Shown here: one piece after another, positions 8,529 to 48,165 of the stretch
How positions within the stretch are numbered: position 1 is the stretch's first letter
Layout: each line of letters opens with the position of its first letter
Assembly (NCBI GenBank): GCA_021800165.1
Contig: JAJYZF010000016.1
Location: forward strand, 1,223-65,222
DNA length: 64,000 nt
Origin: Planctomycetota bacterium
GTDB taxonomy: Bacteria; Planctomycetota; Phycisphaerae; WQYP01
Reading direction: 5' to 3'
The notes under the pieces: model-generated
What the model saw: only the letters and a program-made list of their open reading frames with translations
What the model was told of the DNA's origin: nothing
The model's database searches: none
Made by a program: the position numbers and the translations under genes

Positions 8529-8600
8529 TTGCGGAGCCTTTACCCGCGACCTTCCAACTCGGCTTCAATTCGGCCCGTATCACCGTTAGAGTTAGCATAC

Positions 8601-11600
8601 ATGAACAATGATATCAATCAACACCCAAAAAACGCGACCTCGCCTCTTACCTCCGCCACCAAGACTGCCATCTTTGTCGTTGGCTTCCATCGCAGCGGCA
8701 CCTCCGCTTTCGCTCGCTTCTGCAACTTGCTGGGAGCCCAGATGCCCACAGGCGCTGGATTGATCGCTCCGGATAACCCGACGGGATTCTGGGAGCCAGA
8801 ATCCATTGTTGCCATACATGATCAGTTTCTGGCGTCCAGTGGGTTGTCGTGGGATACGGTCGACGAGATGCCACAATCTGCATTTGACGGCCCAAATGGT
8901 ACCGCAGCACGCGGGAAGTTGCGGTACTGGCTCGCCCGCGAACTCGCCGGCACGGATTTACTGGTGCTTAAGGATCCACGGCTGTGCATGTTGTTGCCGT
9001 TGTGGGTACCGGTGGTTAAAGACCTGAACATTCGTCCCGTTTATTTGATCCCCTTCCGGAATCCGCTTGAGACCGCACAATCTCTTAAGCAGCGCAACAG
9101 CCTGCCAATTTCGCTGGGATTGGCGCTTTGGTCACAATATATTGTCGCCACGGAGCGTCATACGCGCCAAGCTCCGCGGGTATTCGTGTCATACGATGCC
9201 CTGCTGCAGGATTGGTCCCGATGCGCCGCAATGATTAGTAGACGACTAGATCTGCGCTGGCCCGTCGATTTCATGGTAGCCCAACCGCGGATCGACGAAT
9301 TCCTGTCGGCACGGTTGCGTCACCATGAGGCTACATGGGCCAGCCTGATGCAAATACCGGAATCCAACTTGTGGATACAAGGGTTGTACCGCACACTGAA
9401 ACGGCTGGAAAATGATCCTTCGCTCGACGTCGCTGGAGAAATCGGCGAAGCTGCACAGAATCTCAAGACCTTATGGCTTGTCACGCGGCAGGCTCAGGCC
9501 TACGCCTCGGGGTTGAAGGATCAAATCCAGGCCGCAAACCTCGCGGCGGAGCAACTCCAACGCGACCATACCGCCGAATCAACAAAGCTCAAGGACCAAA
9601 TCCAGGCCGCAAACCTCGCGGCGGAGCAACTCCAGCGCGACCATACCACCGAATCAGCAAAGCTCAAGGACCAAATCCAGGCCGCAAAATTGGATTTGCA
9701 GCGAACCGGGATCGAACGTGACCATCTGGCCAGCATTGAGACCCAGTTGCGGCGACAAATTTACGACTTCGAGCACTCCAGGTCGTGGCGGTATACGCGC
9801 CCTTTACGTCAGTTTCGCGGAGCCGTTCGTCTGAAGTTCTCATGGATTTTGTCTCTCTCCAGACGATCAGCATCGGTTATTCGCCATCAAGGGCTGATGG
9901 CTTTCTTCACGCGAGCCAGAGGCTATCTTCACAACCGCTGGCGGTATCAATGGAAGAGATTCCCGAGGGCCTTTTCCGATCAAAGCATGCACGTACAAAA
10001 AAAGGAATCGGATCCGGTCATCATCGCCAGCGTAATAATTCCCGTGTATGACAGAACAGATATCTTGCGTCAAGCCATTACCTCAGCGCTCAACCAGACC
10101 GTCGGAAATATCGAGGTGATCTTGGTGACGGATGGTTCACCACCTGAGACTGTGGCCGTCGTAAACGAGTTCCGCAGAGATCCTCGCGTGAGAGTGTTTA
10201 ATTATCCTGAAAAGTCCGGCACCGCAGTTCGGGGCCGCAACAAGGGCATACTTGAAGCGAGAGGAAAATACATAGCCTTTCTTGACAGTGACGACATCGC
10301 CGATCCGCAGCGCCTTGAGAAAAGTCTTCCCGTGCTTGAAACGGGCGCGGCGGATGTTGTCTACGGAGCATGGAAAGCGATGCTCGATGGATCGCGAAAA
10401 ATGGAGGATCTGTTACATGACCAGGTGGTTGTCAGTCCCAATTGCGATTTAAAAATGTTGCTGCAGGTGTGCGTTCCATGCCAAAGCACTGTGACGGTCC
10501 GCAAAAGCCTCTTTGATAAAGTGGGATTGCTCAAAAGGCACATGCGCTATAGGGAAGATCACGAGCTATGGGTCCGCTTGGCCCATTATGGAGCTCGCTT
10601 CCAATCAATACCCGAGGTGTTAGTCCAACTCCGGTTGCATAAAGGCAATAACGAGCTGAATTTCAAGGCTGATGATCATCAATGGGCGGAAGCCTTGCAG
10701 GCCGAATACAAATTGCCCGGCCCCAAGCCCAAGAAAATAGTCTTTATTCTGCCCGGCGTCGGTATCTCCGGAGGTGTAGCCGTGGTCTTCAAGCACGCCC
10801 TGGCGCTGATGGAAGCAGGCCATGATGTTACGATAGTCAATATTGGCGTAGAACAAAAATGTGATTGGTTCCCGGACAATTCCATTCCTATCGTCCATGG
10901 TTCGGATGAACGGGATTACCTTTTTGATAACATAGATCTACTTTTTGCGACAGGATGGTCAACCGTAGAATGGTTGGAGCGATATCGAGCAAAGCGAAAA
11001 CTATACTTCGTTCAATCTGATGAACGCCGTTTCGTTGACGAATACGGCCTGAAGCAGAAAATTCATAATGAATACAAAACGCCCTGTGAATATGTCACAA
11101 TAGCGCGGTGGCTCAAAGCCATGTTGAAAGACGAGTTTGGCCATGAGGCCGCCTATGTTCCCAATGGGATCGATCTTAAGGCCCTTTATCCAGGCAGTCC
11201 CTTAAGCCCAAAATGCGGCCCGCGTCTTCGTGTCCTCATCGAAGGACCTATCACGATTCCTTTTAAGGGCATGGCTGACGCACACGCGGCAATCGCCACG
11301 CTCGACTGCGACATTTGGATTGTCAGCAGTAGCGGACGACCGCCCCCTCATTGGAGATATAACCGATTCTTTGAAGCTGTTCCTTTTACCGGAATGAGGG
11401 AAATATATGCATCCTGCGATATATTTCTCAAAATGAGCCGGATTGAAGGGTTCGGATTACCGCCGCTGGAGGCAATGGCCTGCGGGTGCGCCGTAGTTAT
11501 CGGACGGGTTGAGGGTTGTGATGAATATGCGAAAAATGGCTATAATGCGATCGTTGTCGATCAGGGGAACATCGAAGCGGCAAAGTGTGCGGTTCAACAT

Positions 11601-11774
11601 CTGATAAATGACCAAGCGCTACGGCAGAAGCTTGTCACCAACGGATTTCAAACTGCGCGCCAATGGACATGGGAAAACGCAACCAAAGCGATGCTGGCGG
11701 TGGTGGTAGGACCAGACGCGGACAATGATGATTCTTCGGGCAAACGAGTGGACAAGGTAGGCTCGAAAATGTGA
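8601..11774 (+). CDS. Multidomain glycan synthase: N-terminal sulfotransferase domain, coiled-coil with tandem repeats, GT2 domain, C-terminal GT4 (GT-B) domain
   Basis: N-terminal domain: FVVGFHRSGTSAFARF (5'-PSB-like P-loop) and LVLKDPRLCMLLPLW (3'-PB-like). Coiled-coil region: KDQIQAANLAAEQLQRDHTxESxKL repeated about 2.3 times. GT2 domain: SVIIPVYDR...VILVTDGS...YIAFLDSDD. GT4 domain: KIVFILPGVGISGGVAVV...EGFGLPPLEAMACGCAVV. The first ATG is at 8601. ORF 8529..11774 begins at a TTG at 8529, immediately after the wzt stop, which is an alternative start. Confidence 0.8.
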   Translation: MNNDINQHPKNATSPLTSATKTAIFVVGFHRSGTSAFARFCNLLGAQMPTGAGLIAPDNPTGFWEPESIVAIHDQFLASSGLSWDTVDEMPQSAFDGPNGTAARGKLRYWLARELAGTDLLVLKDPRLCMLLPLWVPVVKDLNIRPVYLIPFRNPLETAQSLKQRNSLPISLGLALWSQYIVATERHTRQAPRVFVSYDALLQDWSRCAAMISRRLDLRWPVDFMVAQPRIDEFLSARLRHHEATWASLMQIPESNLWIQGLYRTLKRLENDPSLDVAGEIGEAAQNLKTLWLVTRQAQAYASGLKDQIQAANLAAEQLQRDHTAESTKLKDQIQAANLAAEQLQRDHTTESAKLKDQIQAAKLDLQRTGIERDHLASIETQLRRQIYDFEHSRSWRYTRPLRQFRGAVRLKFSWILSLSRRSASVIRHQGLMAFFTRARGYLHNRWRYQWKRFPRAFSDQSMHVQKKESDPVIIASVIIPVYDRTDILRQAITSALNQTVGNIEVILVTDGSPPETVAVVNEFRRDPRVRVFNYPEKSGTAVRGRNKGILEARGKYIAFLDSDDIADPQRLEKSLPVLETGAADVVYGAWKAMLDGSRKMEDLLHDQVVVSPNCDLKMLLQVCVPCQSTVTVRKSLFDKVGLLKRHMRYREDHELWVRLAHYGARFQSIPEVLVQLRLHKGNNELNFKADDHQWAEALQAEYKLPGPKPKKIVFILPGVGISGGVAVVFKHALALMEAGHDVTIVNIGVEQKCDWFPDNSIPIVHGSDERDYLFDNIDLLFATGWSTVEWLERYRAKRKLYFVQSDERRFVDEYGLKQKIHNEYKTPCEYVTIARWLKAMLKDEFGHEAAYVPNGIDLKALYPGSPLSPKCGPRLRVLIEGPITIPFKGMADAHAAIATLDCDIWIVSSSGRPPPHWRYNRFFEAVPFTGMREIYASCDIFLKMSRIEGFGLPPLEAMACGCAVVIGRVEGCDEYAKNGYNAIVVDQGNIEAAKCAVQHLINDQALRQKLVTNGFQTARQWTWENATKAMLAVVVGPDADNDDSSGKRVDKVGSKM
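9516..9690 (+). repeat. 78-bp (26-codon) in-frame tandem repeat, ~2.3 copies, inside the coiled-coil segment of the synthase gene
   Basis: AAGGA(T/C)CAAATCCAGGCCGCAAACCTCGCGGCGGAGCAACTCCA(A/G)CGCGACCATACC(G/A)CCGAATCA(A/G)CAAAGCTC occurs at 9516 and 9594, with a partial third copy from 9672. Confidence 0.9.
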
Positions 11775-12092: not shown

Positions 12093-13958
12093 TCAGGAAA
12101 TGGTGCTCCTGAAAGTGGACGAAGGTACACCGCTTTGCGGGTTGATCACCGTAAACGTAACGTTGTTTCCCGAAGCGATGATCCAACCATTGGTGCCGTA
12201 GGCACCCGTTAAGCCGCTGATGACGATCTGGGTGTTCGTCCATGAGGTCACATTGGTGGTAACGCCATCACCAGTGTTGCCCCCCGCCCAAGGGCCTGCG
12301 GTATCCACCAGCTTAAGGTCGGCGCTGTCGCCATTGTATGGCGATTGCACCCCAAAGCCACTGCCATCAATTGTAATCTGCCAGTTGTTGCTGGTGCCCG
12401 CGAGAAGTTGCGACGAAACCGACGAGATCACCGGATTTGGGGTTGTGGGCATGGCATAGCTAAACGTGGTTGCGGCAATACCGGACTGCGGATTGGAAAC
12501 ATTGATGGCTAGCGCATCACCCGGACTGATCACCCAGCCGTTGGTGCCATACGCACCCGTCAAGCCGCTGATGACAATTTGGCTGTCCGTCCACGAGGTG
12601 ACATTAGCCGTCACACCGTTGCCCGTATTACCCCCCGCCCAGGGGCCTGTGGTATCCACCAGCTTAAGATCGGTGCTGTCGCCATTGTATGGTGATTGAG
12701 CGCCAAAGCCGCTGCCATTAATTGTGATATCCCAGTTGTTGCTGCTGCCCGCAAGAAGTTGCGTAGCAACCGAGGCAATCACGGGCGTCAACGCCGGAAC
12801 AGTATAGGAAGCTGGATTGGACACAAGACCATCTTGGACGTTATTAACAGTGAAACTCAATTGGTTCCCCGTATTAATCACCCAGCCGTTGGTGCCATAC
12901 GCTCCCGTCAAGCCGCTGACGACAATTTGGCTATCCGTCCACGAGGTGACATTAGCCGTCACACCGTTGCCCGTATTGCCGCCAGCCCACGGGCCGGTGG
13001 TATCCACCAGCTTAAAATCGGCGCTGTCGCCGTTGTAGGCCCCTTGAGTGCCGAATCCGGTGCCATTGATCGTGATCTGCCAATTATTGGGATTGCTCGC
13101 AATGGCCTGGATGGAAATGGAAGTGATATCAGGCGTCGCAATGGCGTACGAAAACTGGGGAGCGGCAAGGCCGTCTTGGGGATTATTCACCGTAAAAATC
13201 AGGGTGTCGCCGGGATTGACCACCCAACCGTTGGTGCCGTAGGCCCCACTCAGCGAACCGATAACAATTTGGTCGTTGGTCCAGGAGGTAACATCAGCCG
13301 TCACACCGTTGCCCGTCTTGCCGCCAGCCCACGGCCCAGCGGTATCAACAAATTTCAGGTCCGCATTATCGCCAGTATATGCCGCTTGTAAGCCAAGACC
13401 ATGGCCGTTTATTGTGATCGCCCAGTTGTTTATGCTCGTCAACCGCTGTACAGACACTGCGTCAATCTGCGGAGTTCCCGGAACTGTCTGGTAGGTAACG
13501 GCGGCGACATTCGTTTGTGGATTCGTTACGCTGATCACCAGGGAATCCGCCGGACTGATTAGCGCACCGTTCACCCCATACGACCCGCTCAAACCGTCAA
13601 TGATAATTTGGTTGTTTGTCCAAGAGGTTACGTTCACGCCAACCCCGTCGCCTGCTTGGCCGGCCGCAAAAACCCCGGCATCTACCACTACCAGATCGCC
13701 GCTTCCACTTCCGCTATACGCCGCACTGGTGCCGAGATTACTTCCGTTGATGGTAATGGAATAATTGTTGGTGCTCCCCAACTCCGTCGCAATCACCGAC
13801 GTTATCACGGGTGTCGCACTAAGCATCACGCGAGGCTCCAAGGCCTCAAACAAGCGCCGAGGCCGATGGGAATGTTTGCGACTTTGTGACTCATTGACCA
13901 TTCTCTTGGAATTGGATACCTGACGGCCATGACGCATGACTCGAGATAACAGACTCAT
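12093..13958 (-). CDS. LEPR-XLL domain protein with six tandem ~95-aa beta-rich repeat domains (secreted, function unknown)
   Basis: The N-terminus reads HRPRRLFEALEPRVMLSA (LEPR-XLL motif). Six repeats follow, each with consensus NNWxITINGSGFGxQxxYNGDSADLKLVDTxGPWAGGNTGNGVTANVTSWTxxQIVISGLTGAYGTNGWVIxxGxxLxFTVxNPQxG. Confidence 0.8.
   Translation of the reverse strand: MSLLSRVMRHGRQVSNSKRMVNESQSRKHSHRPRRLFEALEPRVMLSATPVITSVIATELGSTNNYSITINGSNLGTSAAYSGSGSGDLVVVDAGVFAAGQAGDGVGVNVTSWTNNQIIIDGLSGSYGVNGALISPADSLVISVTNPQTNVAAVTYQTVPGTPQIDAVSVQRLTSINNWAITINGHGLGLQAAYTGDNADLKFVDTAGPWAGGKTGNGVTADVTSWTNDQIVIGSLSGAYGTNGWVVNPGDTLIFTVNNPQDGLAAPQFSYAIATPDITSISIQAIASNPNNWQITINGTGFGTQGAYNGDSADFKLVDTTGPWAGGNTGNGVTANVTSWTDSQIVVSGLTGAYGTNGWVINTGNQLSFTVNNVQDGLVSNPASYTVPALTPVIASVATQLLAGSSNNWDITINGSGFGAQSPYNGDSTDLKLVDTTGPWAGGNTGNGVTANVTSWTDSQIVISGLTGAYGTNGWVISPGDALAINVSNPQSGIAATTFSYAMPTTPNPVISSVSSQLLAGTSNNWQITIDGSGFGVQSPYNGDSADLKLVDTAGPWAGGNTGDGVTTNVTSWTNTQIVISGLTGAYGTNGWIIASGNNVTFTVINPQSGVPSSTFRSTIS
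12150..13815 (-). repeat. Coding tandem repeat array, period ~285 bp, six copies
   Basis: DNA-level periodicity is visible as near-identical antisense shadow ORFs at 12220, 12466, 12817 and 13276. It is a coding tandem repeat, not a CRISPR array: there are no short fixed repeats with spacers. Confidence 0.85.
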
Positions 13959-14541
13959 AAAAACTCTCCAGAAACAATAGCCAACAGAATAAACATCAGA
14001 CCGCCACTATCATATTCATAGTATACACACTTGGCGGTAATAAGGCAAGAAAAGGCGAGGCAAGGGTGCCCCAAGACCGGGCGGGAGCCACTGTCCGTCA
14101 TGGGCAGGTCCGAGATCCAAAATCCTTCCGACTAGGTTAAATTGCTACACGCACGGCCATTTACGCGTTCATGTAATAAGCGAGAGAGGATATGCCATCT
14201 TGGGCGTTCCCCACAAAGAACATCATGAGGTTCCCGGGATTAATCACCCAGCCGTTAAGCCCGTAGGCACCCGTCAGGGCGCTGATAACGATCTGGTTAT
14301 TTGTCCATGATGTAACATCCGTCTCCACTCCATCTCCGGTATTGCCCGCCACCATAGCAGTGGTGAAGTCACCAATTCCCAAGTCCGCGCTATCGCCATT
14401 GTACGCCGCTTGAGTACCGAAGTTACTGCCGCTTATCGTGATGTGCCAATTGTTTGGACTACCGGCTACAACCCGGCTGGTCACAGACGAGATTTCCGGA
14501 ACTATCGCCGGCATGGTGTACGAAAAGCCCGCCGACGCTAA

Positions 14542-16375
14542 CCTGACTTCCCCCGATGAAGAGCGAAAGTCCTTGGTTTGCGGCCTTTCCGCGGTAATGC
14601 ACTTGCTACAATCAACCCGGTGCCCACGCTGGCGGCTGGGTAAACAGTGGCAGCAGCTCCAGTTGGCCGAGGATGGCGTTAAGGTCTTTGGGCACGCGGG
14701 TAACCTTGGTTTTGAGCCTTTTACCGTTCACCTCCAGACGTCCCAGCCGGATGGTCTGTAATTGCCGGAGCAAATGATGTACTTCAATAGTCTGGCCTTT
14801 GCGCCGCCATTGGGCCTCAAGTTTGGCGCTGAGCCAATAGGCCAGGAAGCAGATTCGCACATGATTGCGCACGCGATCAGGGCGGTAATGAAATACCGGG
14901 CGTACACGCAGATAATCTTTCAGATGGCAGAAGGCATCTTCAACTTCCAACAAGTTCTTATAATGCACGACCACTCCCGCGTTGGAGATCCGTTGGGCCG
15001 AGGCATTGGTTCGCAGGAGATACAGGCCGTCGCGTTGGGCTTCGGCCCGGATCAAATCTTGGCGATGACTCCATTGTAACTGCCCTTTCTCATCCACTGC
15101 GTAATGGAAATATTTGTGGGCCTTAAGCCGTTGCAGCATCCGTCCCACCTGGCGGGCCAGCTTTTGCGCGTTGACCTTCTTACGCGGCACCGCCGCCATT
15201 CGCTGGAGTTCGTTTTCCGCCTTGGTGATGCGGGCCTGGCGTCGCTGCCGGTCCCGCTCTTGCCGCCACGGTCCCCCGGCAATCACATACCGTTGACCCT
15301 CTTTAACTATTTCCATCAGCCCTGTGCGATCCCACAGTTCAGGCGACTGATCGCTGGGTAATTCCGCCAACAGTTCAGCCAAAACCCCTGCCCCGCAGCG
15401 GGTCACATACATCAGGCCCAGCGCCTCGATCGCCTCCAAATTCACCTTACTACTCATGCCGCCATCGAAGACGAACACCGCCTCCTGAATCCCCAAACGC
15501 CGACGCAACGTATGGAGCAACCCCTGCAAGGTCGTGGTATCGCCCCGGTTGCCCCGCAAGACCTCCAAGTGCAACGGCAGACCTTTGGTATCGGTGGCTA
15601 CGGCCAAGAGCACCTGGGGACGATCGCCGCGATGGTCCCGACTGTAGCCGTAGCGACTGATCCCCGCCGGTCCCTGGCCTTCAAAGTACACACTGGTCAA
15701 GTCATAGAGCACCAGCGAGACGCCTGAATTCAAGCCTTGGGCATAGAGTTGCTTTTCCATGGCCACCCAACGCCCGTTGAATTCATCCATCGCCGCATAC
15801 AGGTCGTCTTCATCGAAGGTCTCCCGATCCTGCCAGAGCCCGCAGGCGGCGGCCAACAGCGTGCCCCGGGCGTGATCCCGCAAGGCCAGCTTGGCGCTGG
15901 GGAACAAGATACGCCCAAAGATCATGGCCTTGATGAGGCCGGCGTGCCGTGGCACCGCAACTGCCGCCAGAACTTTATCCAACCCGAAGTCATCCCAGGC
16001 CCGGCGTAACACGGCCAGGCCGCCAAAGCTCTGGGCTTCCGACAACTCCAGGCTCTCCAAGTCCACCAAGTTCTGGCCCCGCAAAGATTGGGCGATGAGT
16101 TGGCGGGTCTGGGGCGGCAAGGCGGTGATATTGCAAAGGGTGCGTGAGCGTGGCCCCTTGGGGGTGCGGAAGGATTCACGCACCAGGTAGGTGAGGTAGG
16201 TTTTCTTGCCGCGTTTACAGGTGGTCGTCTGCACAAACATACAAGCTACATGTTACTAGGATATAAACCATAATACAAGCATCATATACAATAATATAGC
16301 CGAAGATTACTTGCTACATTTTTGCCCAAAACAGCGTTTTTACGGCCTTTTTTAAAAAGCCGGGGGGAAGTCAGG
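14542..16375 (-). mobile_element. IS4-superfamily (IS1634-like) insertion sequence, 1834 bp, terminal inverted repeats CCTGACTTCCCCC(C)G, 4-bp target duplication CTAA
   Basis: IRL lies at 14542..14555 and IRR at 16361..16375 (reverse complement CCTGACTTCCCCCCG). CTAA occurs at 14538..14541 and again at 16376..16379. The element carries a single 542-aa DDE transposase ORF. Confidence 0.8.
14612..16240 (-). CDS. DDE transposase, IS4 superfamily (IS1634-like)
   Basis: 542 aa, with the motifs YDLTSVYFEG...SRDHRGDRPQV, FVFDGGMSS and HYKNLLEVEDAFCHLK (a Y..E..K-type C-terminal signature). The size is typical of IS1634-group transposases. Confidence 0.75.
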   Translation of the reverse strand: MFVQTTTCKRGKKTYLTYLVRESFRTPKGPRSRTLCNITALPPQTRQLIAQSLRGQNLVDLESLELSEAQSFGGLAVLRRAWDDFGLDKVLAAVAVPRHAGLIKAMIFGRILFPSAKLALRDHARGTLLAAACGLWQDRETFDEDDLYAAMDEFNGRWVAMEKQLYAQGLNSGVSLVLYDLTSVYFEGQGPAGISRYGYSRDHRGDRPQVLLAVATDTKGLPLHLEVLRGNRGDTTTLQGLLHTLRRRLGIQEAVFVFDGGMSSKVNLEAIEALGLMYVTRCGAGVLAELLAELPSDQSPELWDRTGLMEIVKEGQRYVIAGGPWRQERDRQRRQARITKAENELQRMAAVPRKKVNAQKLARQVGRMLQRLKAHKYFHYAVDEKGQLQWSHRQDLIRAEAQRDGLYLLRTNASAQRISNAGVVVHYKNLLEVEDAFCHLKDYLRVRPVFHYRPDRVRNHVRICFLAYWLSAKLEAQWRRKGQTIEVHHLLRQLQTIRLGRLEVNGKRLKTKVTRVPKDLNAILGQLELLPLFTQPPAWAPG

Positions 16376-17180
16376 CTAAGCCATCTTGCGCATTACTCGC
16401 CGCAAGGATGAGCGAGTCGCCAGCATTGATCACCCAGCCATTAGAACCATACGCTCCGGTTAAAGAACTAATTACAATCTGATTGTTGTTCCATGAGGTC
16501 ACATTCGCCCCGACGCCATCCCCAGTATTGCCCGCCACCATAGCAGTCGTGAAGTCACCAATTTCCAAGTCCGCGCTGTCGCCATTGTACGCCGCTTGAG
16601 TACCAAAGCCACTGCCATTAATGGTAATCTGCCAGTTGCTCCCACCTCCTAATGCAACCATCGACACCTCGGAAATTACCGGAGCCGGACCGGCAACCTC
16701 CGCAACCAAACCTGGCACCAGTAAATTAGCTATCGGAGAACCGCGGCCGGTTACCAGATTATAGCCGGGGCCGGCCCAATAGCCGCCATTACCGCCGGTG
16801 GTTATCGCATGAAAATCCCCGGCCGGCAGAGCGTATAGGTCCGGCAGTGTTTGCGTGGCCCCGGCCAAAGACCCATCGCCCGCCAGCGCCAACCCCTGAT
16901 CGGCAATGGCAATAATGCCTGCCCAGGCAGGGGCACCCACACTTGTACCACCCTCCTCGGCCCATGGAGTGGATGCTCCATTGCCGGTGTTATAAACCGC
17001 CACCCCGGTGTTGGGATCGCCATCAAAAGCCACATCCGGAATGGTACGTGCCGTGACACTTTGCGTGACAACACCCTGCTGATACCCAGGCTGAGCTTCA
17101 TATTGGCTGATGCCGCCACCGCTGCCGCTCCAAGCGGTCTCACTGATGTAATTACCCTGACTATCCATATTCAGCGTAGT

Positions 17181-17188
17181 CCCCCCCC
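17181..17188 (-). other. C8/G8 homopolymer tract causing a +1 frameshift in the protease gene
   Basis: Plus strand tagtCCCCCCCCac. The two overlapping ORFs (17161..17967 and 16371..17258) are offset by one frame exactly across this tract. Confidence 0.8.
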
Positions 17189-17982
17189 ACCGCCAGCACA
17201 TTGGGCGAATACGCCGGATAATACCCCGGTGAACCGTTGTCACCAGTGCTGGCCACAAAAGTCACGCCCGTATGGCCGCTGGGGGTTGTAAAATAAGTAT
17301 CGTAGGAGGTTTCAAAATTGGTTTCGGCGGAACCATAACTCATGGAAACCACCGATACCCCCGGCTGCCGGGCGGCGAATTGGGCTGCCGCATAAAGATC
17401 CGTTGACGAATTAGTATTGGCCTCCACCAACAAGATGTTGGCCTGCGGCGCAACGGCATGTGCCCATTCTACATCCAACGCGACCTCGCCAAAGTATCCC
17501 CCACCACCGGTACCCGGATAATTGGTCCCGCCGGTCTGATTTACCTTGGTAAACGACGGCGGATTCGGTAGCCCAAAATCCTGATCGAACTGATATAAGT
17601 CGCTGCCGGAGAAGCTCGGACTGCCGCTGCTGACGAAATACGGATCATTGTACGGATCAATGATGGCGATCGTTTGACCCGCTCCGCTTCCGGCAACCGC
17701 ACCGCCATCGAATGAAATCTGGTTGATGCCGTAGGCCTGCCGAATTTCCGCGGGGGTGTGGCCATACGCGGAGGAACCGCCGTCCGAAGCTGTCACCATC
17801 AGTGTGGGTCCGACCGCGTGGAAAGCGGAAAGCAGCAGACGCGGTTCCAACGGCTCAAAGAAACCACGCCGACAGGCGTGGCGTTTGCGCTGATCCACAG
17901 CTAGAGACACCGCGCCGTTTTTTCTCCCTTGGAACAATCGCCCAAGCCAACTCATTGTCGTCGCCATCCAAGCTATGGCCGC

Positions 17983-19092
17983 TTACACGATCAATACTTC
18001 CTTGCCCGCCGCGTCGGACCTGTACACGCCATCAATGATTTTCTGCACCGCCATGCCCGCTTCACCTGGAGCCTCCAGGGCGGTGTTGTGGATGATGGCA
18101 TGAATAAAGTTCCGCTGCTTATCCAGAAACAACGAGGCAAAATCAGAATTCTCCAGAAATGCCGGCTGGGAATTAATCATGGTTCCGGCACGATCCGTAA
18201 ACAGCCCCGGCGGATCCCAGTTCGCTCCGCCCTTGTCGCCGATCAGGCTGAAATTCCATACATCCTTTTCGATATGGGCCGCAAATGACGCTTCAATCTG
18301 CATCACCGCGCCGTTGGCAAAACGAATGTGGCCGATGGCCAAATCTTCCACGGTATAGGTCTTCCAGTCCCAATTGGGCCAACCGCAGGAAACATTGCTG
18401 GGCTTGTTGCCCATGTAGGTCCAAATATTGCCGGTGGCGGCAATCGGCTTGGGAGATCCCATGATATAGTGCGCCATCTCAATGACATGCACCCCGATGT
18501 CAATCATGGGGCCACCACCCTGCAACTTTTTCTGACCAAACACACCCCAGTTGGGAATGCCCCGGCGACGCAGTGCCCGGCACTTCACATACATAATATT
18601 GCCAAACTGACCCTCATCCCGTGCCCGCTTGATCATCTGCGTGGTGGGGTGATAGCGGTATTGAAAACCAACCGCCAGTTTGCGCTTGTTTTTCTTGGCC
18701 GCGTCAATCATGGCCTGACATTCCTTCGGGCTCATGGCCATGGGTTTCTCCGTCATGACGTGCGCACCGGCATTCAACGCGGCAATCGCCGCCGGGGCGT
18801 GAACCCCATTGGGCGTGCACACATCCACAGCATCGGGCTTAACTTCCTTGAGCATCTTTTTGTAATCCAGGTAAACACCCTGAACACCGTGTTCATCACG
18901 CAGCCAGTCGAGACGGTCGGATTTGATGTCGGCTCCGGCGACCACTTCCACCTCGGGAATTTTTTTATAAGCCGCCAGGTGGGTTGCCGAAATTCCTCCG
19001 CAGCCGATAAACGCCACCCGAATTTTCCGCCCTTTGAATTCCTGTTTTTTCTCTCCACCCAATGATTCCGTTGAAACGCCTGAGTTAGCCAT
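17983..19092 (-). CDS. Gfo/Idh/MocA family NAD(P)-dependent oxidoreductase
   Basis: N-terminal Rossmann motif IRVAFIGCGGISATHLAAY, followed by the EKP motif (HVMTEKPMA) typical of the family. An AAAGGAA RBS lies upstream. Confidence 0.8.
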   Translation of the reverse strand: MANSGVSTESLGGEKKQEFKGRKIRVAFIGCGGISATHLAAYKKIPEVEVVAGADIKSDRLDWLRDEHGVQGVYLDYKKMLKEVKPDAVDVCTPNGVHAPAAIAALNAGAHVMTEKPMAMSPKECQAMIDAAKKNKRKLAVGFQYRYHPTTQMIKRARDEGQFGNIMYVKCRALRRRGIPNWGVFGQKKLQGGGPMIDIGVHVIEMAHYIMGSPKPIAATGNIWTYMGNKPSNVSCGWPNWDWKTYTVEDLAIGHIRFANGAVMQIEASFAAHIEKDVWNFSLIGDKGGANWDPPGLFTDRAGTMINSQPAFLENSDFASLFLDKQRNFIHAIIHNTALEAPGEAGMAVQKIIDGVYRSDAAGKEVLIV

Positions 19093-38278: not shown

Positions 38279-38557
38279 TTAATTTACCCCACATTCCACA
38301 GGCCGTGGCCCGCCACATCTTGCACCAACATCTGGACCGAACATTCCGGATCGCTTGGCCTGTATTCTAACCGCACCTCGACCTTCGGCAATCGTCTTAT
38401 CACGTATCGCGCCTTCCGACACAACAGGCCAGTTCATACCCATCTCCGCCACGCCTCTCAGCTCCGCCGGGAAAAGCCCCTTTGTACCTACTGCCCAGCG
38501 GCGACGCCCGCCCACCCCGGCATTCTCCGATGCTTCACCGTATTCCCAAATCTCTTT

Positions 38558-40216
38558 TCAATTCCCATTCTCCCGCCCCCCTGCGGCCCGAGCGTGCTCT
38601 TTCGCCCAAGTCTCCAACTCTGCCGGCTTGGCGGCATAAGCGCCGGTGGTCAACACCATCACCGTCGCGGGATCACCGGCAAATGCATCCCACCAATAAC
38701 GCGAGCCTTGCCCCCACAGTGGCCTCAACACTCCCCCACGAAACATCTTCGCCCGCGGCGTCACCCGTTTCAAAACCTGGCAGCGTGGCGGCCGCTGAAA
38801 CGTAAAATGAGGCCTATCGTCGTTGCCATGCGGCAACCCCCAATTCAACGCCACCCCGGTGATCCATGCCGAATAATCTCTGGATACCTCCGGCATGATC
38901 CGTATCCCCCTCCGCCGCCATTGCTCCAACAGCGTCAGGTATCCTTCCGGCGTAAAGCTCGGATACGCCATCCCACCGGTATCCCAGAATGCCATACTCA
39001 CACCATTCTCCGCCAGATTATCTCGCATCTTAAGCAGGTAGGATTGAGCCAAGGTGGCTTGAGACGCCATCGGCACCACCAGCGCCGGCAAGAACCTCTG
39101 ATCCAGCTTCCAAGCCGCGGCGCTTTGGTCAACACGCGGCGAAAAACGCGGATCAATCAGCACGCCCAAGGGGATGCCAACTCTACTGGCTGCCTTTAAT
39201 TGTTTGAACCAGGCGAGCCTTTCCGGAAACGGTTCATAAAAGCCCTTTCCATCAGGCGGCGCCCATTGAATATATCCCCGTGCCCCCAGCGATTTGGCCT
39301 GGGCCACCTGCTTCACCAGATCCGGAAACGGCCAGCCGGTGCAGGCCCATGGGCTTTCGGTTTTCAGCGCGGATGATTCCACCATGCCGTATCGCTTCAT
39401 AGTGGGCGCTAGCCGCAGCTCGCGATATTCGTCTAGCGCAATATCCGGCATTCCCCGTGCATACGATCGCACATAAAAATCCAGCGTGGTCTGGCGTCCC
39501 TTGCTTAAATTCAGATAGCTATGCACCCGCGGCCGACACACGTTTCCATCTATATGCCAGGAACAACCCGACTGCCGCAGTCGGTCATCAAAAAAATCAA
39601 CACTCACACCCGCCCCGCTCCGCGCATCATAAAACACCACCAGAGCCGAATAGCGGTAATAATCTTCCCCGTCATCGCCGTGGCCTGCCCGCCACGCATA
39701 CCCCCTCCCACCGCAACAGGAATCGAGCACTCGGGTATCCGCCGGTGCCCGTGCGGTGAATTCCGGCAAATCAAAAGAGATCGTGCGAATATTAAACCGA
39801 AAGCCGTTGCCCACACGCAACCGCACATGCACGGGCTGATCACCCCGGCCAGCCTGGTGAATCTCTACCCAGACGCGCACACTGCCGTGGCCGCCAATCC
39901 ATAGTTGCTCCAGCACAGAGTGTTTTTCACCGCTGGATTGGCACATAAAATCCGATACCCCAAACAGATCGCGGACCAGATGGCCCGCCTGGTTTAGATG
40001 GTCGGCCATCGCGTTGTGCGCCTGCAAAGCGGCGACGGTAAAGCCGCGTTGCCGGTCCGCCGCCGATACCAGCCGGAAACCTGTTCCAGACGCCTCCGCT
40101 CGTGCCGGGCCATACCCGCCGACCGCCGCGATACCGGCAAAGCCAGTGGCCACCAGAAATTTCCGCCGCGCTATCCGCCGCCCTTCTGCGTCTCTGAGGT
40201 TATGGTTATTTGTCAT
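38558..40216 (-). CDS. Tat-exported protein, uncharacterised paralog family member 1 (putative GH-A-like TIM-barrel glycoside hydrolase)
   Basis: Tat motif RRKFLVATGFAGIAAVGG. Family blocks: CCGGRGYAW, YYRYSALVVFYD, GYIQWAPPDGKGFYEPFPERLAWF, GIPLGVLIDPRFSPRVDQSAAAWKLDQRFLP, YLLKMRDNLAENGVSMAFWDTGG, GIRIMPEVSRD and PRCQVLKRVTPRAKMFRGG. Confidence 0.85.
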   Translation of the reverse strand: MTNNHNLRDAEGRRIARRKFLVATGFAGIAAVGGYGPARAEASGTGFRLVSAADRQRGFTVAALQAHNAMADHLNQAGHLVRDLFGVSDFMCQSSGEKHSVLEQLWIGGHGSVRVWVEIHQAGRGDQPVHVRLRVGNGFRFNIRTISFDLPEFTARAPADTRVLDSCCGGRGYAWRAGHGDDGEDYYRYSALVVFYDARSGAGVSVDFFDDRLRQSGCSWHIDGNVCRPRVHSYLNLSKGRQTTLDFYVRSYARGMPDIALDEYRELRLAPTMKRYGMVESSALKTESPWACTGWPFPDLVKQVAQAKSLGARGYIQWAPPDGKGFYEPFPERLAWFKQLKAASRVGIPLGVLIDPRFSPRVDQSAAAWKLDQRFLPALVVPMASQATLAQSYLLKMRDNLAENGVSMAFWDTGGMAYPSFTPEGYLTLLEQWRRRGIRIMPEVSRDYSAWITGVALNWGLPHGNDDRPHFTFQRPPRCQVLKRVTPRAKMFRGGVLRPLWGQGSRYWWDAFAGDPATVMVLTTGAYAAKPAELETWAKEHARAAGGRENGN

Positions 40217-40294
40217 CCTGTTGATCCCGCAAAAAGACTCTCTTCCGGGATCAGCAGCCGTCCAGCCCGCCAACCAGAACGCCCACTGCCCGCC

Positions 40295-42016
40295 TTAGCT
40301 GCGATGATGTTTCGCCCATACATCAAACACCGACGCTCTAATCAGCGGTATGCCAAAGCCGCCGCCTCCCACCACATCCCACCAATACGTATTGCCCTGA
40401 TGCGTGGTATTCGGGATATCGCCGCTGATAAACAACTTGGCTTTGGGCGTCACCCGCCGCCACACCTGGTACCGCGGTGGATGAGCCAACGAAAACAGCG
40501 GGCCGCCATAAACCGCTTCCTTGGCTTTCAACAAAGCGCCACGCAATTCAAACACGTTCAGGATGCCGGCATAGGTAGTCCCTGTGATAAACGCCGCATG
40601 ATCGCGCACCGCCTCCTGCAAAATGGTGATGCCCCCCCTTTTCCACTGGTACAGCAAGTTAAGGTATTGCTCCACTGTGGCATGCTTGTACGGCAAACCA
40701 CCCGTATCCCAAAACGCCATGCTCACGCCGTTGGCCACCAGGTTGTCCCGCATTTTAAGCAGGTAAGCCTCCGCCGACGCAGCGCCATAGGCCATTGGAG
40801 CGACATGATTCGGCAAATAGCGACGGTCCAGCGCCCAATGCTTGGCCCTTTGATCCAGTCGCGGTGATTCATTCGGGTCGATCAGCACCCCCAGCGGTAT
40901 GCCAAGCTTGCTGGCTTTTTTTACCCCCGCAAACCACTCAAACCGCTCCGGAAAAGGTTCGTAATCCCCCTCACCGTCCGGGGCCGCCCACTGAATATAG
41001 CCATGCGAACCGAGCGCCTTGGCCCGGGCCACCGCCTTGACAATGTTGCCATCCAGCGGCCAGCCGCTGGAGGTCCACGGCCCGGTTGTTTCCAAGCGGC
41101 CTTCCGGAATACCGTAACGCGCCATCAGCGGCATCAGCCTTTGCGTGCGATAAGCATCCAGGGCCATATCCGGCAATCCTTGAGCATATTTCTTCATGCG
41201 AAAGCCAAAATCCGCGGCGCAGCCTTTATCCAAAACAAAGCAGTTGCAGTCCAACCAGGGCCGACATTCTTTTCCACTTACATTCCAATGCAGTTCAAAA
41301 TTGCGCAGTCGGTCGTCAAAATACTCCACGCACACACCCGCCGTGCTCCGTTGGTCATAGTAAACCACCAGCGAAGACGATCGGAAATATCCCAAGCCAT
41401 CGTTACAAACCCCGTCGCCCCAGTTCCAATCCCGCTCGCGTCCGCCGCCAAACGCATCCAGCACCCGCGTCTGCTCCGGAGCCGGCGCCGTAATCGTGGG
41501 CATCCGAAACGTGATGCTCTTGAGATCAAACGCCCACCCATTTTCCACCCGGGAATGAAAAACCAATTCTTGGCCGGGAGCCTGATGAATATCCGTGTAC
41601 ACACGCACATGACCGGTGGTATCGGCCCACACCTGCTCAACAACATTCCCCTGCGCACGGCTGGATTTACATACAAATTTCAGACCAAAGGTATCTTGAA
41701 TTAAATGGCCGGAGGAATCCACATAAGCCGCCGGCTCCGGTCCCGGTTTGGCCGGCCCCCGTCCGATGCGATCCTTCAAGGGGTTCACCGCCACCGCCCC
41801 AAGAACCGCGAATCCATCCTTCTTATCCGCCGGCGAAGCCAGGCCAAACTCATAACCAAGGTGTAGCCCCTGTTCAGGAACCACCGCGTGCGGAACCGGT
41901 TGGCCATTCCACAGCGGCTGCGCCCGCAAAGTGCCCGCCCCCGCCGCACCAGCCGCAGCCAGCGCCGCCGACACCAAAAATTCACGCCGCGACATCGAAC
42001 TCATTTTACACCCCAT
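40295..42016 (-). CDS. Tat-exported protein, paralog family member 2
   Basis: SRREFLVSAALAAAGAAGAG. Same conserved blocks: GYIQWAAPDGEGDYEPFPERFEWF, LLKMRDNLVANGVSMAFWDTGGLPY and GITILQEAVRD. The start is ambiguous between 42016, 42004 and 41995. Confidence 0.85.
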   Translation of the reverse strand: MGCKMSSMSRREFLVSAALAAAGAAGAGTLRAQPLWNGQPVPHAVVPEQGLHLGYEFGLASPADKKDGFAVLGAVAVNPLKDRIGRGPAKPGPEPAAYVDSSGHLIQDTFGLKFVCKSSRAQGNVVEQVWADTTGHVRVYTDIHQAPGQELVFHSRVENGWAFDLKSITFRMPTITAPAPEQTRVLDAFGGGRERDWNWGDGVCNDGLGYFRSSSLVVYYDQRSTAGVCVEYFDDRLRNFELHWNVSGKECRPWLDCNCFVLDKGCAADFGFRMKKYAQGLPDMALDAYRTQRLMPLMARYGIPEGRLETTGPWTSSGWPLDGNIVKAVARAKALGSHGYIQWAAPDGEGDYEPFPERFEWFAGVKKASKLGIPLGVLIDPNESPRLDQRAKHWALDRRYLPNHVAPMAYGAASAEAYLLKMRDNLVANGVSMAFWDTGGLPYKHATVEQYLNLLYQWKRGGITILQEAVRDHAAFITGTTYAGILNVFELRGALLKAKEAVYGGPLFSLAHPPRYQVWRRVTPKAKLFISGDIPNTTHQGNTYWWDVVGGGGFGIPLIRASVFDVWAKHHRS

Positions 42017-42062
42017 ATTTCAGCACATTCCAGCAACCATCGTCGCCCACCCGCCGCACCGC

Positions 42063-43724
42063 CTAACCATCCCTATGCTCCTTAGCCCAGCTTACCAGTT
42101 GTGCCGGCTGCGGGACGTACACTCCTGCACTCAAAAGCAATATTGTTGTGGGATCGCCATTGAAGGCGTTCCACCAATGAGGATTACCTGCCAGCGTAGG
42201 CGGGTTGATACCGCCTCGGAACATTTTCACATTTGGCGTAACCCGCTTCAAAATCTGGCATCGTGGGGGGGTGGCAAAAGTAAAAAGTGGGCCACCATAG
42301 ACTCGTGTGGAACTCGGAAGTCCCCAATTGAATGCGACGCCCGTTATCCAACTGCTGTGATCGCGGGAAGCCTCCGGCATAATGCTGATACCGGCTTGTT
42401 TCCATTGCCGCAACAAGGTCAAAAACTGTTCCGGAGTCCAGCCCTTATTGGGCAATCCTCCGGTATCCCAGTACGCCACCGTCACACCATTGGCGGCCAA
42501 GTTGTCGCGCATCTTCAGCAGATAGGCCTGCGAAGCGGCGGTACACGCCAGCGGGGTCATGCCCATTGGCACGTATTTCTGGTCCAGTTTCCAAGCCGCG
42601 GCGCTCTGCCCGATCATCGGCGAAAAATTCGGATCAATCAACACGCCCAACGGTACGCCCAGTTCACTGGCCTTTTTTACTCCCGAAAACCAGCCGATCC
42701 TCTCCGGAAATGGCTCATATTGTGGAATGCTCGGCGGGGCCCACTGAATATACCCTTTGGCCCCCAAAGATTTGCAATATTCCACCATTTTCGGCAAATT
42801 ACCGCCATTGGGCCAACCACTTTGCGCCCACGGACTGGTAGCCTTAAACGCTGGCGACTCCGGCATGTCATAGCGTTTCATAAATGGTGCCAAACTGTAA
42901 GTACGGTAGTCGTCTAAGCCAATTTCCGGCATCCCATGGCTATAAGCGCGCATGCCAAAATCAAAAGTCGCCCTGCGCCCCTTTTGCAGCGAAAAATAAC
43001 TGCAATCCAGCCGCGGCTGGCATTGCCCCCCATGCGTGTCCCAATGCAGTTCGAAGTTCCTCAGCAAATCGTCAAAATATTCGACTGCCACCCCCGCCGT
43101 GCTGCGCCGATCATAAAATGCCGCTACGGACGAATACCGGTAGTACCCTAGGCCATCATTGGCCCTTCCGTTCGCCCACCTCCGCTCCCGACCGCCGCAA
43201 CATCCGTCCAGGACGGCGGAATGTTGCGGATCAGGACACAGCACCATCGGTAACTGAAACGTAAGCCCTCTGATGTTGAAGGCCCAGCCATTGTAAACTT
43301 CCACACGAAACCGCAGCGCGTCGCCTTTTTGATCAATCCGCGCATGAATATGCACGTGCCCGTCGGTGTCCTGCCATACCTGTTCCCATGTGCCGCCCTG
43401 GCCGCGTCTGGCCTTGCACACAAATTTGATATTAAAACTCTCTTCCACCAGGTGGCCACCGGTACCCATCGCCGCTGGCATGGGTACGCCCAGCCGCTTG
43501 CCATGCTTGGCCTTAGCCCCAATATGATCACCCATCGGGTTGTGGACCGAGGCCCCCTTCACCGCAAAGCCCAGAAGCCTGTCCATGGGAGAAACCACTC
43601 GCCATCCCCTTCCAGCACCCACCGCCACGGCAGTATCCGTCGGCGAAGCCGCCGCCACATACGGCCCGGCCGCCACCGTCGCCGCAACCGCGCCGGCCAC
43701 CACAAGAAAATCCCGGCGGCTCAT
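42063..43724 (-). CDS. Tat-exported protein, paralog family member 3
   Basis: MSRRDFLVVAGAVAATVAAG. Same blocks: GYIQWAPPSIPQYEPFPERIGWF, LLKMRDNLAANGVTVAYWDTGGLPNKGW and GISIMPEASRD. Confidence 0.85.
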   Translation of the reverse strand: MSRRDFLVVAGAVAATVAAGPYVAAASPTDTAVAVGAGRGWRVVSPMDRLLGFAVKGASVHNPMGDHIGAKAKHGKRLGVPMPAAMGTGGHLVEESFNIKFVCKARRGQGGTWEQVWQDTDGHVHIHARIDQKGDALRFRVEVYNGWAFNIRGLTFQLPMVLCPDPQHSAVLDGCCGGRERRWANGRANDGLGYYRYSSVAAFYDRRSTAGVAVEYFDDLLRNFELHWDTHGGQCQPRLDCSYFSLQKGRRATFDFGMRAYSHGMPEIGLDDYRTYSLAPFMKRYDMPESPAFKATSPWAQSGWPNGGNLPKMVEYCKSLGAKGYIQWAPPSIPQYEPFPERIGWFSGVKKASELGVPLGVLIDPNFSPMIGQSAAAWKLDQKYVPMGMTPLACTAASQAYLLKMRDNLAANGVTVAYWDTGGLPNKGWTPEQFLTLLRQWKQAGISIMPEASRDHSSWITGVAFNWGLPSSTRVYGGPLFTFATPPRCQILKRVTPNVKMFRGGINPPTLAGNPHWWNAFNGDPTTILLLSAGVYVPQPAQLVSWAKEHRDG

Positions 43725-43830
43725 CGCGTCCTCCGATACGTACGACCGTCGGCGCGTTACTGCCATTATCAACTCCTGCAATTAAAATCACCCACCCCTC
43801 CGCAGCGCGTCGGTGGTGGATTAACACAAA

Positions 43831-44859
43831 TTACGTCCCGCTGTGAAACGAAAACTTTTTGATATTCTCCGTTGCCTGGCACGCCGTGGTCCCACCGGTG
43901 ATACCCACCCAGCCGGTTTTGGATCCCAGCAGCTTGGTGATGCTTTCCGGCAGTTTCACCTTATAGCTGTAGACGCCGGTACCATTGGCCTTAAGCCCAC
44001 CGTGTGCCTGCACCGCCTTGAACGTTAAACGGTTTTTACCATCGTAGGAAATAGTAATCTTCACCGGGGCATTAAATGCGCTGAAATTCACCGTACCTGT
44101 GGAATGCAGACCTGACAAACCGGATGGATAATAATCAGGCCGTTTCACCCCCCCCTTCGGACTCTGATAAGAACAGGCCAACCCCACGTTGTTGTACTGC
44201 CATTTTTTCCCCGTGTAGTAGCAGTCCGTGCGAATGCCGATCCCCACACTGGCGGCCGGCATGGTTTGTTGCGGCCATTTTCCCATCAATATCCCGCGCC
44301 CGTTCCAAGCCGGACTGATCAAATGAGTTCCCGCCGGGTTATTCTCAAGCACAACAAAAAAGCCCGATCCCGGAGCCCCGGCCACACCCTTGGCCAGCGC
44401 CGTGGGACCGTGATAATTTTTAGACGGCATGTCCCAGATGAACTCCATGGTCCAAGGCTTGCCCACCACCTGCTTGGCGTCAAACCACACCGCCGCACTC
44501 GCACCCTGGTCCGCCCAGTGCGTCAGGTTGATCAGGGGACTGCGACTATATCTAAAGGCCGGTGGGGCCTCGCCACCTTTGTAGGAAGCAACAGTCGGCG
44601 GCAAGAACGTATTGTATTTGTTGGCCGCTCCCTCTATATAATTTATCGTAACCGTGCCATTATCATACGAATAGAGTTTTTTACTGGGTGTGGATGGCGG
44701 AGACTTTGTAAAATCCGCGGGCGTCGCCGATCTACCGAACCCCGCTAAATCCGCCTGAGCAGCGGAAGTGGGCATGCAGATCGCCGCCCCGACCAGACAT
44801 GTTCCCACCAACACCACATGTTGCCATCTCTCGGTATGTCGCACCCGTGCCCTTGACAT
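43831..44859 (-). CDS. Secreted L-type-lectin/concanavalin-like domain protein (no PEP-CTERM)
   Basis: Signal peptide, then ADLAGFG...YSYDNGTVTINY...WFDAKQVVGKPWTMEFIW...GFFVVLENN...ASVGIGI...GTVNFSAFNAPVKITISYDG..LTF...WVGITGGT. This is a legume-lectin-like block order. AAGGA RBS. Confidence 0.7.
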   Translation of the reverse strand: MSRARVRHTERWQHVVLVGTCLVGAAICMPTSAAQADLAGFGRSATPADFTKSPPSTPSKKLYSYDNGTVTINYIEGAANKYNTFLPPTVASYKGGEAPPAFRYSRSPLINLTHWADQGASAAVWFDAKQVVGKPWTMEFIWDMPSKNYHGPTALAKGVAGAPGSGFFVVLENNPAGTHLISPAWNGRGILMGKWPQQTMPAASVGIGIRTDCYYTGKKWQYNNVGLACSYQSPKGGVKRPDYYPSGLSGLHSTGTVNFSAFNAPVKITISYDGKNRLTFKAVQAHGGLKANGTGVYSYKVKLPESITKLLGSKTGWVGITGGTTACQATENIKKFSFHSGT

Positions 44860-44978
44860 AATTTTCCTTTCCGAGTCTTCGCTATACGCGCCATCCACGA
44901 CCGCCAGTCGCGCCGCAGGTATTTCAGAATATAGCAGGAGATCAACCTGGTTTCAAATCACAGCATATCCGCCCGGCT

Positions 44979-46067: not shown

Positions 46068-46099
46068 AACGCTCTCCTTAAATGATCAAGCCCCAACCA

Positions 46100-47005: not shown

Positions 47006-47090
47006 AAAATAATTTAAGATATATATATTACAATATGTTTTTTCGGTCTCCATACTGTACTCCTCACATCCATTGCCAATCACCAGACCA

Positions 47091-48026
47091 TTACGGCAAC
47101 GTCGGCACCGTTGTCGGCGTCACCCAGCCCTGGCACCAGTTCTGCTTCCACAAATCCGCCAGCTTGACCGAAGCCGCATGCCCGTCCAGGTACGAAACAT
47201 TAATCGAACCACCATGACGGTTGATATCCAGCCGCCACATCTGCGGGTACGGTACATAGCTTGATACGCCGTAATCGCCGTTCAGGTTCGCCGGAGGCGG
47301 TGCGCTAGGCCCCCAGTAAGACGACCCCGGCTCATACCATGGCGAAGCATCCAGGTAAATACAATCAAAAAATACCGGTATTGTCGCGCTGCTCACGCTG
47401 GCGCTGCTTAGATTCGCCGGCCATGGATCATTAGCCCCCAGACACACTTCCCAGCCTGACGGCGGCGCCGGATTGTACAACCAGGCGTTAAAGCCGTAAC
47501 TGCCCACATATTTCGCCGGGAATGGATAACCCCAGCCATCCGTCCAACTTTGCGTGGAAGTACCCCAACCCAAAGACGTCCAGTTAAAAGGTTCGCTGGT
47601 GGTGGTGGATGGACACACCAGCACCGGCGCACTCTGAAAATTCACATTGTTCCAAGTCGTTTGATTCGGTTGTACGGCACTGTAGTAATTTTGCAGATAC
47701 GCCGGCCAATAATAGTCCGCCCAGGTGCCAATGGACGGATCTGTCGCCGCGGTCGGCAGCGGCTGCCACGAAATGGTCTGGCCGTCGTAATCGCTTTGGT
47801 ATTCCTGAAAAGCCGTGCCCAGTTGGCGCTCGTTAGACAGGCATACCACCGAATCCGCATCTTGCCGCGCTGCCGCCAGCGCCGGCAGCAGCAGGGCTAT
47901 CAAAATGGCGATAATGGAAATCACCACCAAAAGTTCAACCAGCGTAAAACCACGATCCCAGCGTGCCGAGGACCGCCAGAGGAGAGAATGACGCTCGGCG
48001 GAAGAATCAAATGAGCCTATTTCCAT
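47091..48026 (-). CDS. Prepilin-type N-terminal cleavage/methylation domain protein, DUF1559 (H-X9-DG) family, copy 1
   Basis: [30 protein letters not shown] after a 26-aa leader. The C-terminal half has [17 protein letters not shown] (H-X9-DG). Confidence 0.8.
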
Positions 48027-48165
48027 GTTCGTGCTCCACCAAAGCCAACATGCCGACATGCCCACCGCGCCCCTTCTTGCGCTCGTTGCCCCGATGCTCA
48101 CCCGGCCGCCGTCAAGCCAAGCTCCCCGCCGACGCGATAACGGCGGCGGGAAGCTACATATTGGC

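Follow-up and report, generated by a model that had tools for sequence, protein, structure and literature searches.

A LEPR-XLL S53 peptidase gene of an uncultured planctomycete disrupted by a G-tract frameshift and an IS1634-family insertion

Serine-carboxyl peptidases of the sedolisin/kumamolisin type (MEROPS S53) are characterized by a Ser-Glu-Asp triad and an oxyanion Asp in a subtilisin-like domain, by an N-terminal activation prodomain and by proteolysis at acid pH. Planctomycete LEPR-XLL proteins are recognized by the model NF012209 and share the motif F-E-x-L-E-P-R-x-L-L-S-A; a literature search on LEPR-XLL found no descriptive paper. The IS1634 family of insertion sequences (ISs) was split from IS4 in 2008; its members are 1,500-2,000 bp long, have ends of the form C-----YT and make AT-rich target duplications of 5-6 bp, IS1634 and IS1549 making long duplications of variable length (De Palmenaer et al. 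2008, PMC2266710). These three systems meet in a 64,000-nucleotide (nt) stretch of contig JAJYZF010000016.1 (assembly GCA_021800165.1; hereafter the window) from an uncultured Planctomycetota bacterium, where a LEPR-XLL S53 peptidase gene on the minus strand is interrupted both by a one-base insertion in a G tract and by an IS. We conclude that this is very probably a recently decayed accessory gene, hit by two independent mutations. Coordinates below are positions in the window and residue numbers are those of the repaired protein of 655 amino acids (aa).

The locus had been predicted to hold a single gene of ~660 aa in three minus-strand open reading frames (ORFs), 17161..17967 (268 aa), 16371..17258 (295 aa) and 14161..14514 (117 aa). 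All three are present in the ORF list, and a 542-aa minus-strand ORF (14612..16240) lies between the second and the third. Cutting 14542..16375, one CTAA and one G in silico leaves 1,968 nt, a multiple of three, which translate as one ORF of 655 aa with zero internal stops. Single homologues, namely kumamolisin-As and each of 119 planctomycete S53 proteins, align with the repaired protein, and so the three ORFs do constitute one gene, marginally shorter than first estimated. The N-terminal fragment is the 268-aa ORF itself, 17161..17967 (minus strand; ORF list, NF012209 and kumamolisin alignment), which comprises the LEPR-XLL motif and the beginning of the S53 domain, where Glu161, Asp165 and Asp243 lie. 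The middle part, 16374..17180 (minus strand), lies in the shifted frame within ORF 16371..17258 and comprises the rest of the S53 domain, with Ser342 in the motif GGTSVGAP, and the first of two C-terminal repeats. The C-terminal fragment, 14161..14535 (minus strand), encodes repeat 2 (residues 532-655) and the stop codon; the ORF listed for it begins at an ATG and thereby understated the coding extent, which runs to 14535 and not 14514. In annotation, the three ORFs are better listed as one S53 peptidase pseudogene than as three genes.

Two observations concern the edges of this gene. The first ATG of the 268-aa ORF (17953..17967) falls in sequence conserved with relatives that lack the peptidase gene; the second ATG (M5, MSWLGRLF...) resembles the way the repeat proteins begin (MSLLSRVM..., MSILSRIF...), and translation may in fact start there. 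A scan of 13800..18100 for promoters and terminators returned sites no more numerous than in shuffled sequence.

The repaired protein is an S53 peptidase. A phmmer search of PDB sequences aligned residues 118-429 (~310 residues) with kumamolisin-As at E 6e-22, unbroken across the frameshift site, and the only solved structures matched were kumamolisin-As, kumamolisin and sedolisin (PDB 1sio, 1t1i, 1ga1). In the alignment to 1sio, kumamolisin E78/D82/D164/S278 correspond to E161/D165/D243/S342, such that the Ser-Glu-Asp triad and the oxyanion Asp of S53 are all conserved. The gene had been described as encoding an S8/S53 peptidase; since only sedolisin/kumamolisin-type structures were matched, the S53 half of that description stands and the S8 half does not. 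A Pfam scan of the repaired protein gave zero matches at E <= 0.01, and the assignment is based on the PDB sequence matches together with source annotations. The homologues number more than 7,000, the best of them ~50-63% identical over the catalytic domain; the few named by organism are Planctomycetota, and several carry the source names 'S53 family peptidase' or 'subtilase family serine protease'.

The S53 domain covers residues ~66-430 and follows the LEPR-XLL motif FEPLEPRLLLSA (residues 37-48), which places the protein above the cutoff of NF012209 (21.1 bits vs 17). The adjacent paralogous LEPR-XLL protein, a 621-aa product of 12093..13958 (minus strand) with five ~115-aa repeats, scores 27.3 bits against the same cutoff, and both share the full motif with planctomycete LEPR-XLL proteins, with no unusual difference. 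Like sedolisin and kumamolisin, the repaired protein keeps an aligned catalytic tetrad; unlike them, it has no detectable prodomain, bears two C-terminal beta repeats and is encoded by a pseudogene. Pfam detected no pro-kumamolisin activation domain in it at E <= 0.01, and no more than ~20 residues lie between the LEPR-XLL motif and the point where the mature-domain alignment begins. The prodomain is also absent from its large planctomycete subfamily, and its absence looks like a subfamily trait. The combination of an S53 domain with this repeat is a new architecture, seen only as a pseudogene: among the best 120 S53 homologues, only the neighbour protein itself (P0001) has the repeat. Two of the best-scoring homologues, from other metagenomes (P0002 and P0003; 1,038 and 929 aa), have two complete S53 catalytic domains in tandem.

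The first lesion, at 17181..17188, consists of eight consecutive C in the plus strand, G8 on the minus (coding) strand, identified as a +1 insertion from the sequence and the homologue alignment. With seven G the codons read GTG GGG GGG ACT (V-G-G-T); G8 has one G extra, and an out-of-frame TAG follows at 17161..17163, seven codons past the tract. Every homologue tested (119/119) spans this site in a single frame, and of the 95 alignments free of gaps, 90 conserve V260, 95 G261, 94 G262 and 95 T263. Because the homologues and kumamolisin align through the site and VGGT is nearly invariant, removal of one base is the correct reconstruction, and it restores the conserved motif ...AVGGTTLNMD... 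as originally predicted. The accompanying proposal, that the repaired ORFs be aligned to one continuous homologue, is likewise answered by kumamolisin-As and the 119 homologues, all of which cover the frameshift. The lesion is positioned between Asp243 and Ser342, splitting the Glu and the two Asp from the Ser nucleophile, and hence neither fragment should be catalytically competent. All other residues of the catalytic domain, including the tetrad, are intact, the frameshift being the sole lesion there. It is predicted to be a clearly inactivating lesion, decisive for catalysis.

Decay, phase variation and a homopolymer sequencing error had all been offered as readings of G8. An exact-protein look-up recovered the identical 265-aa frameshifted, IS-truncated product on 13 contigs and the identical transposase at the peptidase locus on 6 contigs. 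We read the locus in JGI 3300039716, ENA ERZ27237177, GCA_027436055.1, GCA_027339985.1 and Logan SRR22746122, SRR22746139 and SRR22746145. Every fetched locus that covers the tract has G8, and the insertion point of the IS is identical to the base. Since two of these loci depart from the window sequence by 1-2 single-nucleotide polymorphisms (SNPs) elsewhere, the carrier loci are not copies of one consensus. Neither a G7 (or G9) allele nor an empty IS site was found in the contigs read, which represent at least three runs and five assemblies. Both lesions would thus appear to be fixed in the sampled population.

That the extra G is an error of sequencing or assembly, with a true genome of G7 disrupted by the IS only, is accordingly highly improbable. 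Homopolymers are classic sites of indel errors, but the same G8 was reached through JGI, MEGAHIT-style k141 contigs, contigs of metagenome-assembled genomes (MAGs), Logan unitigs and at least three SRA runs, on contigs that differ by SNPs elsewhere. The contig names (k141_, NODE_) suggest short-read assemblies, in which consensus indels in 8-mers are rare. As a control, one base was added to or removed from all 25 runs of at least 7 bases in the window and the result tested for ORF fusion. Only this G tract gave a large gain (296 to 536 codons, the IS setting the limit); none of the other 24 disrupts a gene, and the other G/C runs of 7-8 bases sit within uninterrupted ORFs of 370-570 codons. 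An A7 run at 61836..61842, considered as a second frameshift, was rejected: it is intergenic between two minus-strand genes and affects spurious plus-strand ORFs only.

A phase-variation switch, G7 being ON and G8 OFF with the assemblies caught in the OFF state, would account for a tract that is intrinsically hypermutable and is the only lesion in a catalytic domain whose tetrad is intact, in the gene of an exported or surface-type protein at a strain-variable locus. Such genes are the kind that carry homopolymer switches in other bacteria. The resemblance to the contingency loci of Neisseria, Haemophilus and Campylobacter extends to the position of a poly-G within the coding sequence of an exported protein, where a one-base change switches the frame; it ends with the alleles, since here the contigs read show no variation in tract length and the OFF state only. 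Moreover, the tract is not a dedicated one, but a by-product of the Val-Gly-Gly codons of a nearly invariant motif in the middle of the gene, and the allele that bears it also carries a fixed IS downstream. The 90%-identity protein clusters of the three fragments hold fragments only, with no intact (ON) allele. We consider a switch very unlikely, and phase variation, as one of the readings first offered, to be without support. A scan of JGI metagenome contigs for G6-G10 between the exact flanks gave 0 matches; the pattern is valid on the window, and the collection is without this population.

Least credible of all is decoding of the frameshift, in which a programmed +1 shift of the ribosome, or slippage in transcription, would yield some catalytic domain and a partly functional one-repeat peptidase. 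Peptidyl-tRNA(Gly) on GGG GGG G could re-pair in the +1 frame, and RNA polymerase can slip on homopolymers. Yet no homologue (0/119) needs a frameshift here, so the feature is not conserved; the codon in the A site, GAC, is neither a stop nor rare, and the sequence shows no evident stimulatory element. Efficient transcriptional slippage is known from A/T runs of 9 or more.

The second lesion is an IS of 1,834 bp at 14542..16375 (minus strand). It is bounded by perfect 13-bp terminal inverted repeats, CCTGACTTCCCCC, at 14542..14554 and 16363..16375, which are the only two matches to CCTGACTTCCCCC in the window (~0.1 expected by chance), and is flanked by CTAA on the left (14538..14541) and on the right (16376..16379; TTAG as the gene and the transposase are read). 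The precise insertion with a CTAA duplication that had been proposed is thereby confirmed. The intact DDE transposase gene of the element (14612..16240, minus strand, 542 aa) encodes a DDE_Tnp_1 domain (PF01609, 60 bits) and scores 309.3 bits on NF033559, the IS1634-family model, vs a cutoff of 100, with 459/483 profile positions covered; all other IS family models score <32 bits. The earlier label 'IS4-superfamily' is acceptable, IS1634 family being more exact by the 309 bits on NF033559.

The element resembles the IS1634 family in its transposase model, DDE_Tnp_1 domain, length, inverted repeats (CCTGACTT...), C-----YT ends and single ORF, and differs from it in duplicating 4 bp rather than 5-6 bp. 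In IS orientation, the flanks are TTAG / TTAG at the window insertion, TTAA / TTAA in a Planctomycetota MAG with a transposase 87% identical (L010), CTAG / CTAG around a 99.7% identical copy that splits a sulfatase gene (L024) and TTAT / TTAT around a 99.8% identical copy (L025). The same ends and matched 4-bp flanks of relatives and other copies support 4 bp as the genuine target duplication, a minor departure from the family that is consistent across the subgroup. The single flanks of partial copies are mostly of YTAR type. Five copies 99.7-99.8% identical to the IS sit at other sites (L023-L027; ENA ERZ27237063, ERZ27237515, ERZ27237319 and ERZ27237452, and GCA_027435995.1), which indicates that the element moved recently in the community. 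Two of these have non-matching flanks (L023, CTAA/ATAG; L027, TTAA/CTAA), which may reflect chimeric assembly or IS-mediated rearrangement. Transposase relatives in GTDB representative genomes are 58-87% identical, full-length ones 74-87% at the aa level. The 1,834-bp element is apparently a new, unregistered member of the IS1634 family, and could be registered as one that is recently active, has a 4-bp YTAR-like target and is found in Planctomycetota and Verrucomicrobiota MAGs.

Some assemblies show irregularities within the IS. In GCA_027339985.1 (L005), the IS in the peptidase gene has two of the four SNPs that mark the other-site copies (window 15154 and 14591; IS positions 1222 and 1785), which could be gene conversion between IS copies or a mixing of reads from several copies. 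Three Logan contigs, from three runs (L007, L008 and L009), end at the same base, window 15977 (IS position 399), in codons for the conserved motif WDDFGLDK. SNPs between known copies do not explain this common end, since none lies closer than IS position 749; a k-mer shared at IS position 399 with a related IS of the same samples may do so.

The position of the insertion is informative about its effect. The IS junction follows residue 531, exactly where repeat 1 gives way to repeat 2. Once restored, the linker ...NAQDGLA|SAGFSYTMPAIVPE... can be aligned, column for column, with the linkers between the repeats of the protein at 12093..13958. QDGLA|SAGFSYTMPAIVPEISSV, for example, lines up with the neighbour's QDGL-AAPQFSYAIATPDITSI and QSGIAA-TTFSYAMPTTPNPVISSV, and four paralogous repeat junctions cover the IS site. 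This agrees with the original prediction that removal of the IS restores both frame and linker. The IS contributes its first two bases to the codon of the last Ala, and its bases 3-5 (16371..16373) are TGA. The IS-bearing gene would hence end cleanly at ...QDGLA, with no foreign residues, and the IS alone would amount to a deletion of the terminal repeat, not necessarily a knock-out. The gene had been called 'inactivated twice'. Both lesions are real; the IS by itself removes the last repeat only, and the frameshift is the clear inactivator.

The two C-terminal repeats, repeat 1 (residues 416-531; 16374..16721) and repeat 2 (residues 532-655; 14164..14535), are 63% identical. The same ~115-aa unit occurs five times in the neighbour at 12093..13958, with 46-57% identity to the peptidase copies, making seven copies in two genes. 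It has no Pfam family at threshold, its NCBIfam match to 'choice-of-anchor Z' is sub-threshold only, and 'faint' precomputed TIG matches are recorded on repeat-protein orthologues in relatives. An AlphaFold model of one repeat, from a 7-sequence alignment, has six beta strands at moderate confidence (pLDDT 65.7). Foldseek of this model against PDB gave none at E <= 0.001, with weak Ig-like and IPT-like matches only. As modelled, the fold is all-beta and probably Ig-like, a direction in which the TIG matches also point.

Close relatives have the flanks of this locus without the gene. The GFO_IDH dehydrogenase on the flank (17983..19092) falls in a 90%-identity cluster of ten variants, and the relatives read from it range in upstream DNA identity from ~97% (L028-L030) through ~88% (L032) to ~81% (L021; GCA_021790385.1), a further one having a GFO_IDH protein 99.2% identical (L034; GCA_021818835.1). 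In all of these, GFO_IDH is followed by a conserved ~330-nt spacer and then directly by the LEPR-XLL repeat protein, with no peptidase gene there. Similarity to the window ends at ~17947-17950, shortly after the peptidase ORF starts in the annotation, and returns at ~13866, exactly at the DNA for RRLFEALEPRVMLSA of the next gene, which is conserved between strains. The segment specific to this haplotype, 13867..17950, is therefore ~4.1 kb long (~2.2 kb without the IS) and comprises, besides the peptidase pseudogene and the IS, the upstream region and the first ~30 codons of the next gene. Since close relatives are without the whole gene, it is accessory. The repeat proteins downstream are only ~54% identical in aa sequence between genomes whose flanks are 81% identical in DNA.

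By parsimony, the peptidase gene would have been gained in this lineage. An ancestral gene at this locus that the relatives lost by deletion is unlikely, though the most plausible of the alternatives. In its favour, all strains are hypervariable downstream of GFO_IDH, and recombination could remove a gene repeatedly or spread a deletion. Against an ancestral gene stand its absence from relatives at four distances (99.2% in protein; 97%, 88% and 81% in DNA), the single ~330-nt intergenic sequence that they share and that is replaced in the window haplotype, and the lack in L021 of any detectable peptidase remnant beyond the shared N-terminal signal region. A broader scheme, very unlikely as a whole, would turn the stretch downstream of GFO_IDH into a hotspot of cassette exchange for exported LEPR-XLL proteins, with the LEPR-XLL-coding motif, whose conserved DNA in the next gene begins exactly where the haplotype-specific segment ends, as recombination anchor, the S53 peptidase as a newcomer fitted with its neighbour's repeats and the G run as a reversible off-switch. 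A Logan contig of SRR13201255 (L033) ends 8 nt past the stop of GFO_IDH, right at the edge of the variable segment; coexistence of peptidase-bearing and peptidase-free haplotypes in that sample would be expected to produce such an end.

The recent, twofold decay of an accessory gene has to be weighed against several points. No intact copy was found in the homologue search, in the JGI contig scans or in the fragment clusters, so the ancestral intact state is a reconstruction; a protein-guided scan of JGI metagenome contigs with the repaired protein likewise gave no intact orthologue, and one distant repeat-domain relative (L020, 41% identity). The carriers may share one study or habitat and be one clonal population, in which case the 13 contigs overstate independence, and a minority of G7 cells or empty sites may lie behind the consensus contigs. 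The preference for gain over repeated loss rests on parsimony at a clearly hypervariable locus. Finally, a frameshift-free truncated form might have been functional, the IS then perhaps not being inactivating itself.

Even so, we hold recent decay to be the best account of the locus, and the following course of events is proposed. The intact gene would have encoded a 655-aa exported protein composed of a LEPR-XLL region, an S53 serine-carboxyl peptidase and two ~115-aa all-beta repeats. Replication slippage may have added one G to the G7 run of the VGGT codons, shifting the frame between Glu161/Asp165/Asp243 and Ser342 with a stop seven codons past the tract, such that no catalytic domain would be made. 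The IS1634-family element would have inserted by cut-and-paste at the YTAR-type tetranucleotide TTAG (gene orientation), duplicating TTAG, in the linker of repeat 1 and repeat 2, where its end would place a TGA directly behind ...QDGLA. Both events should be recent, given that the 655 codons that remain are open and the catalytic residues all intact. That the gene was dispensable and decayed under relaxed selection is what we infer. The locus is thereby a small, clean case of an accessory exported-protease gene that exists only in doubly disrupted form at a strain-variable site, and fits a rapid turnover of the surface or secreted LEPR-XLL proteins of planctomycetes. The phenomenon itself is textbook, with little meaning beyond annotation.

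Elsewhere in the window, a 1,081-aa glycosyltransferase-like ORF (8529..11774) contains two tandem 75-bp copies, 95% identical, at 9516..9665, which encode the repeated peptide KDQIQAANLAAEQLQRDHT.ES.KL. The region 38500..62000 is occupied by arrays of paralogous genes, among them those for ~570-aa proteins at 38558..43781 and 50726..53964, in which the only recognisable features are an N-terminal methylation (pseudopilin-type) motif and a weak TAT signal. Two duplicated blocks, 47805..49324 and 57997..59548, lie ~10.2 kb apart.

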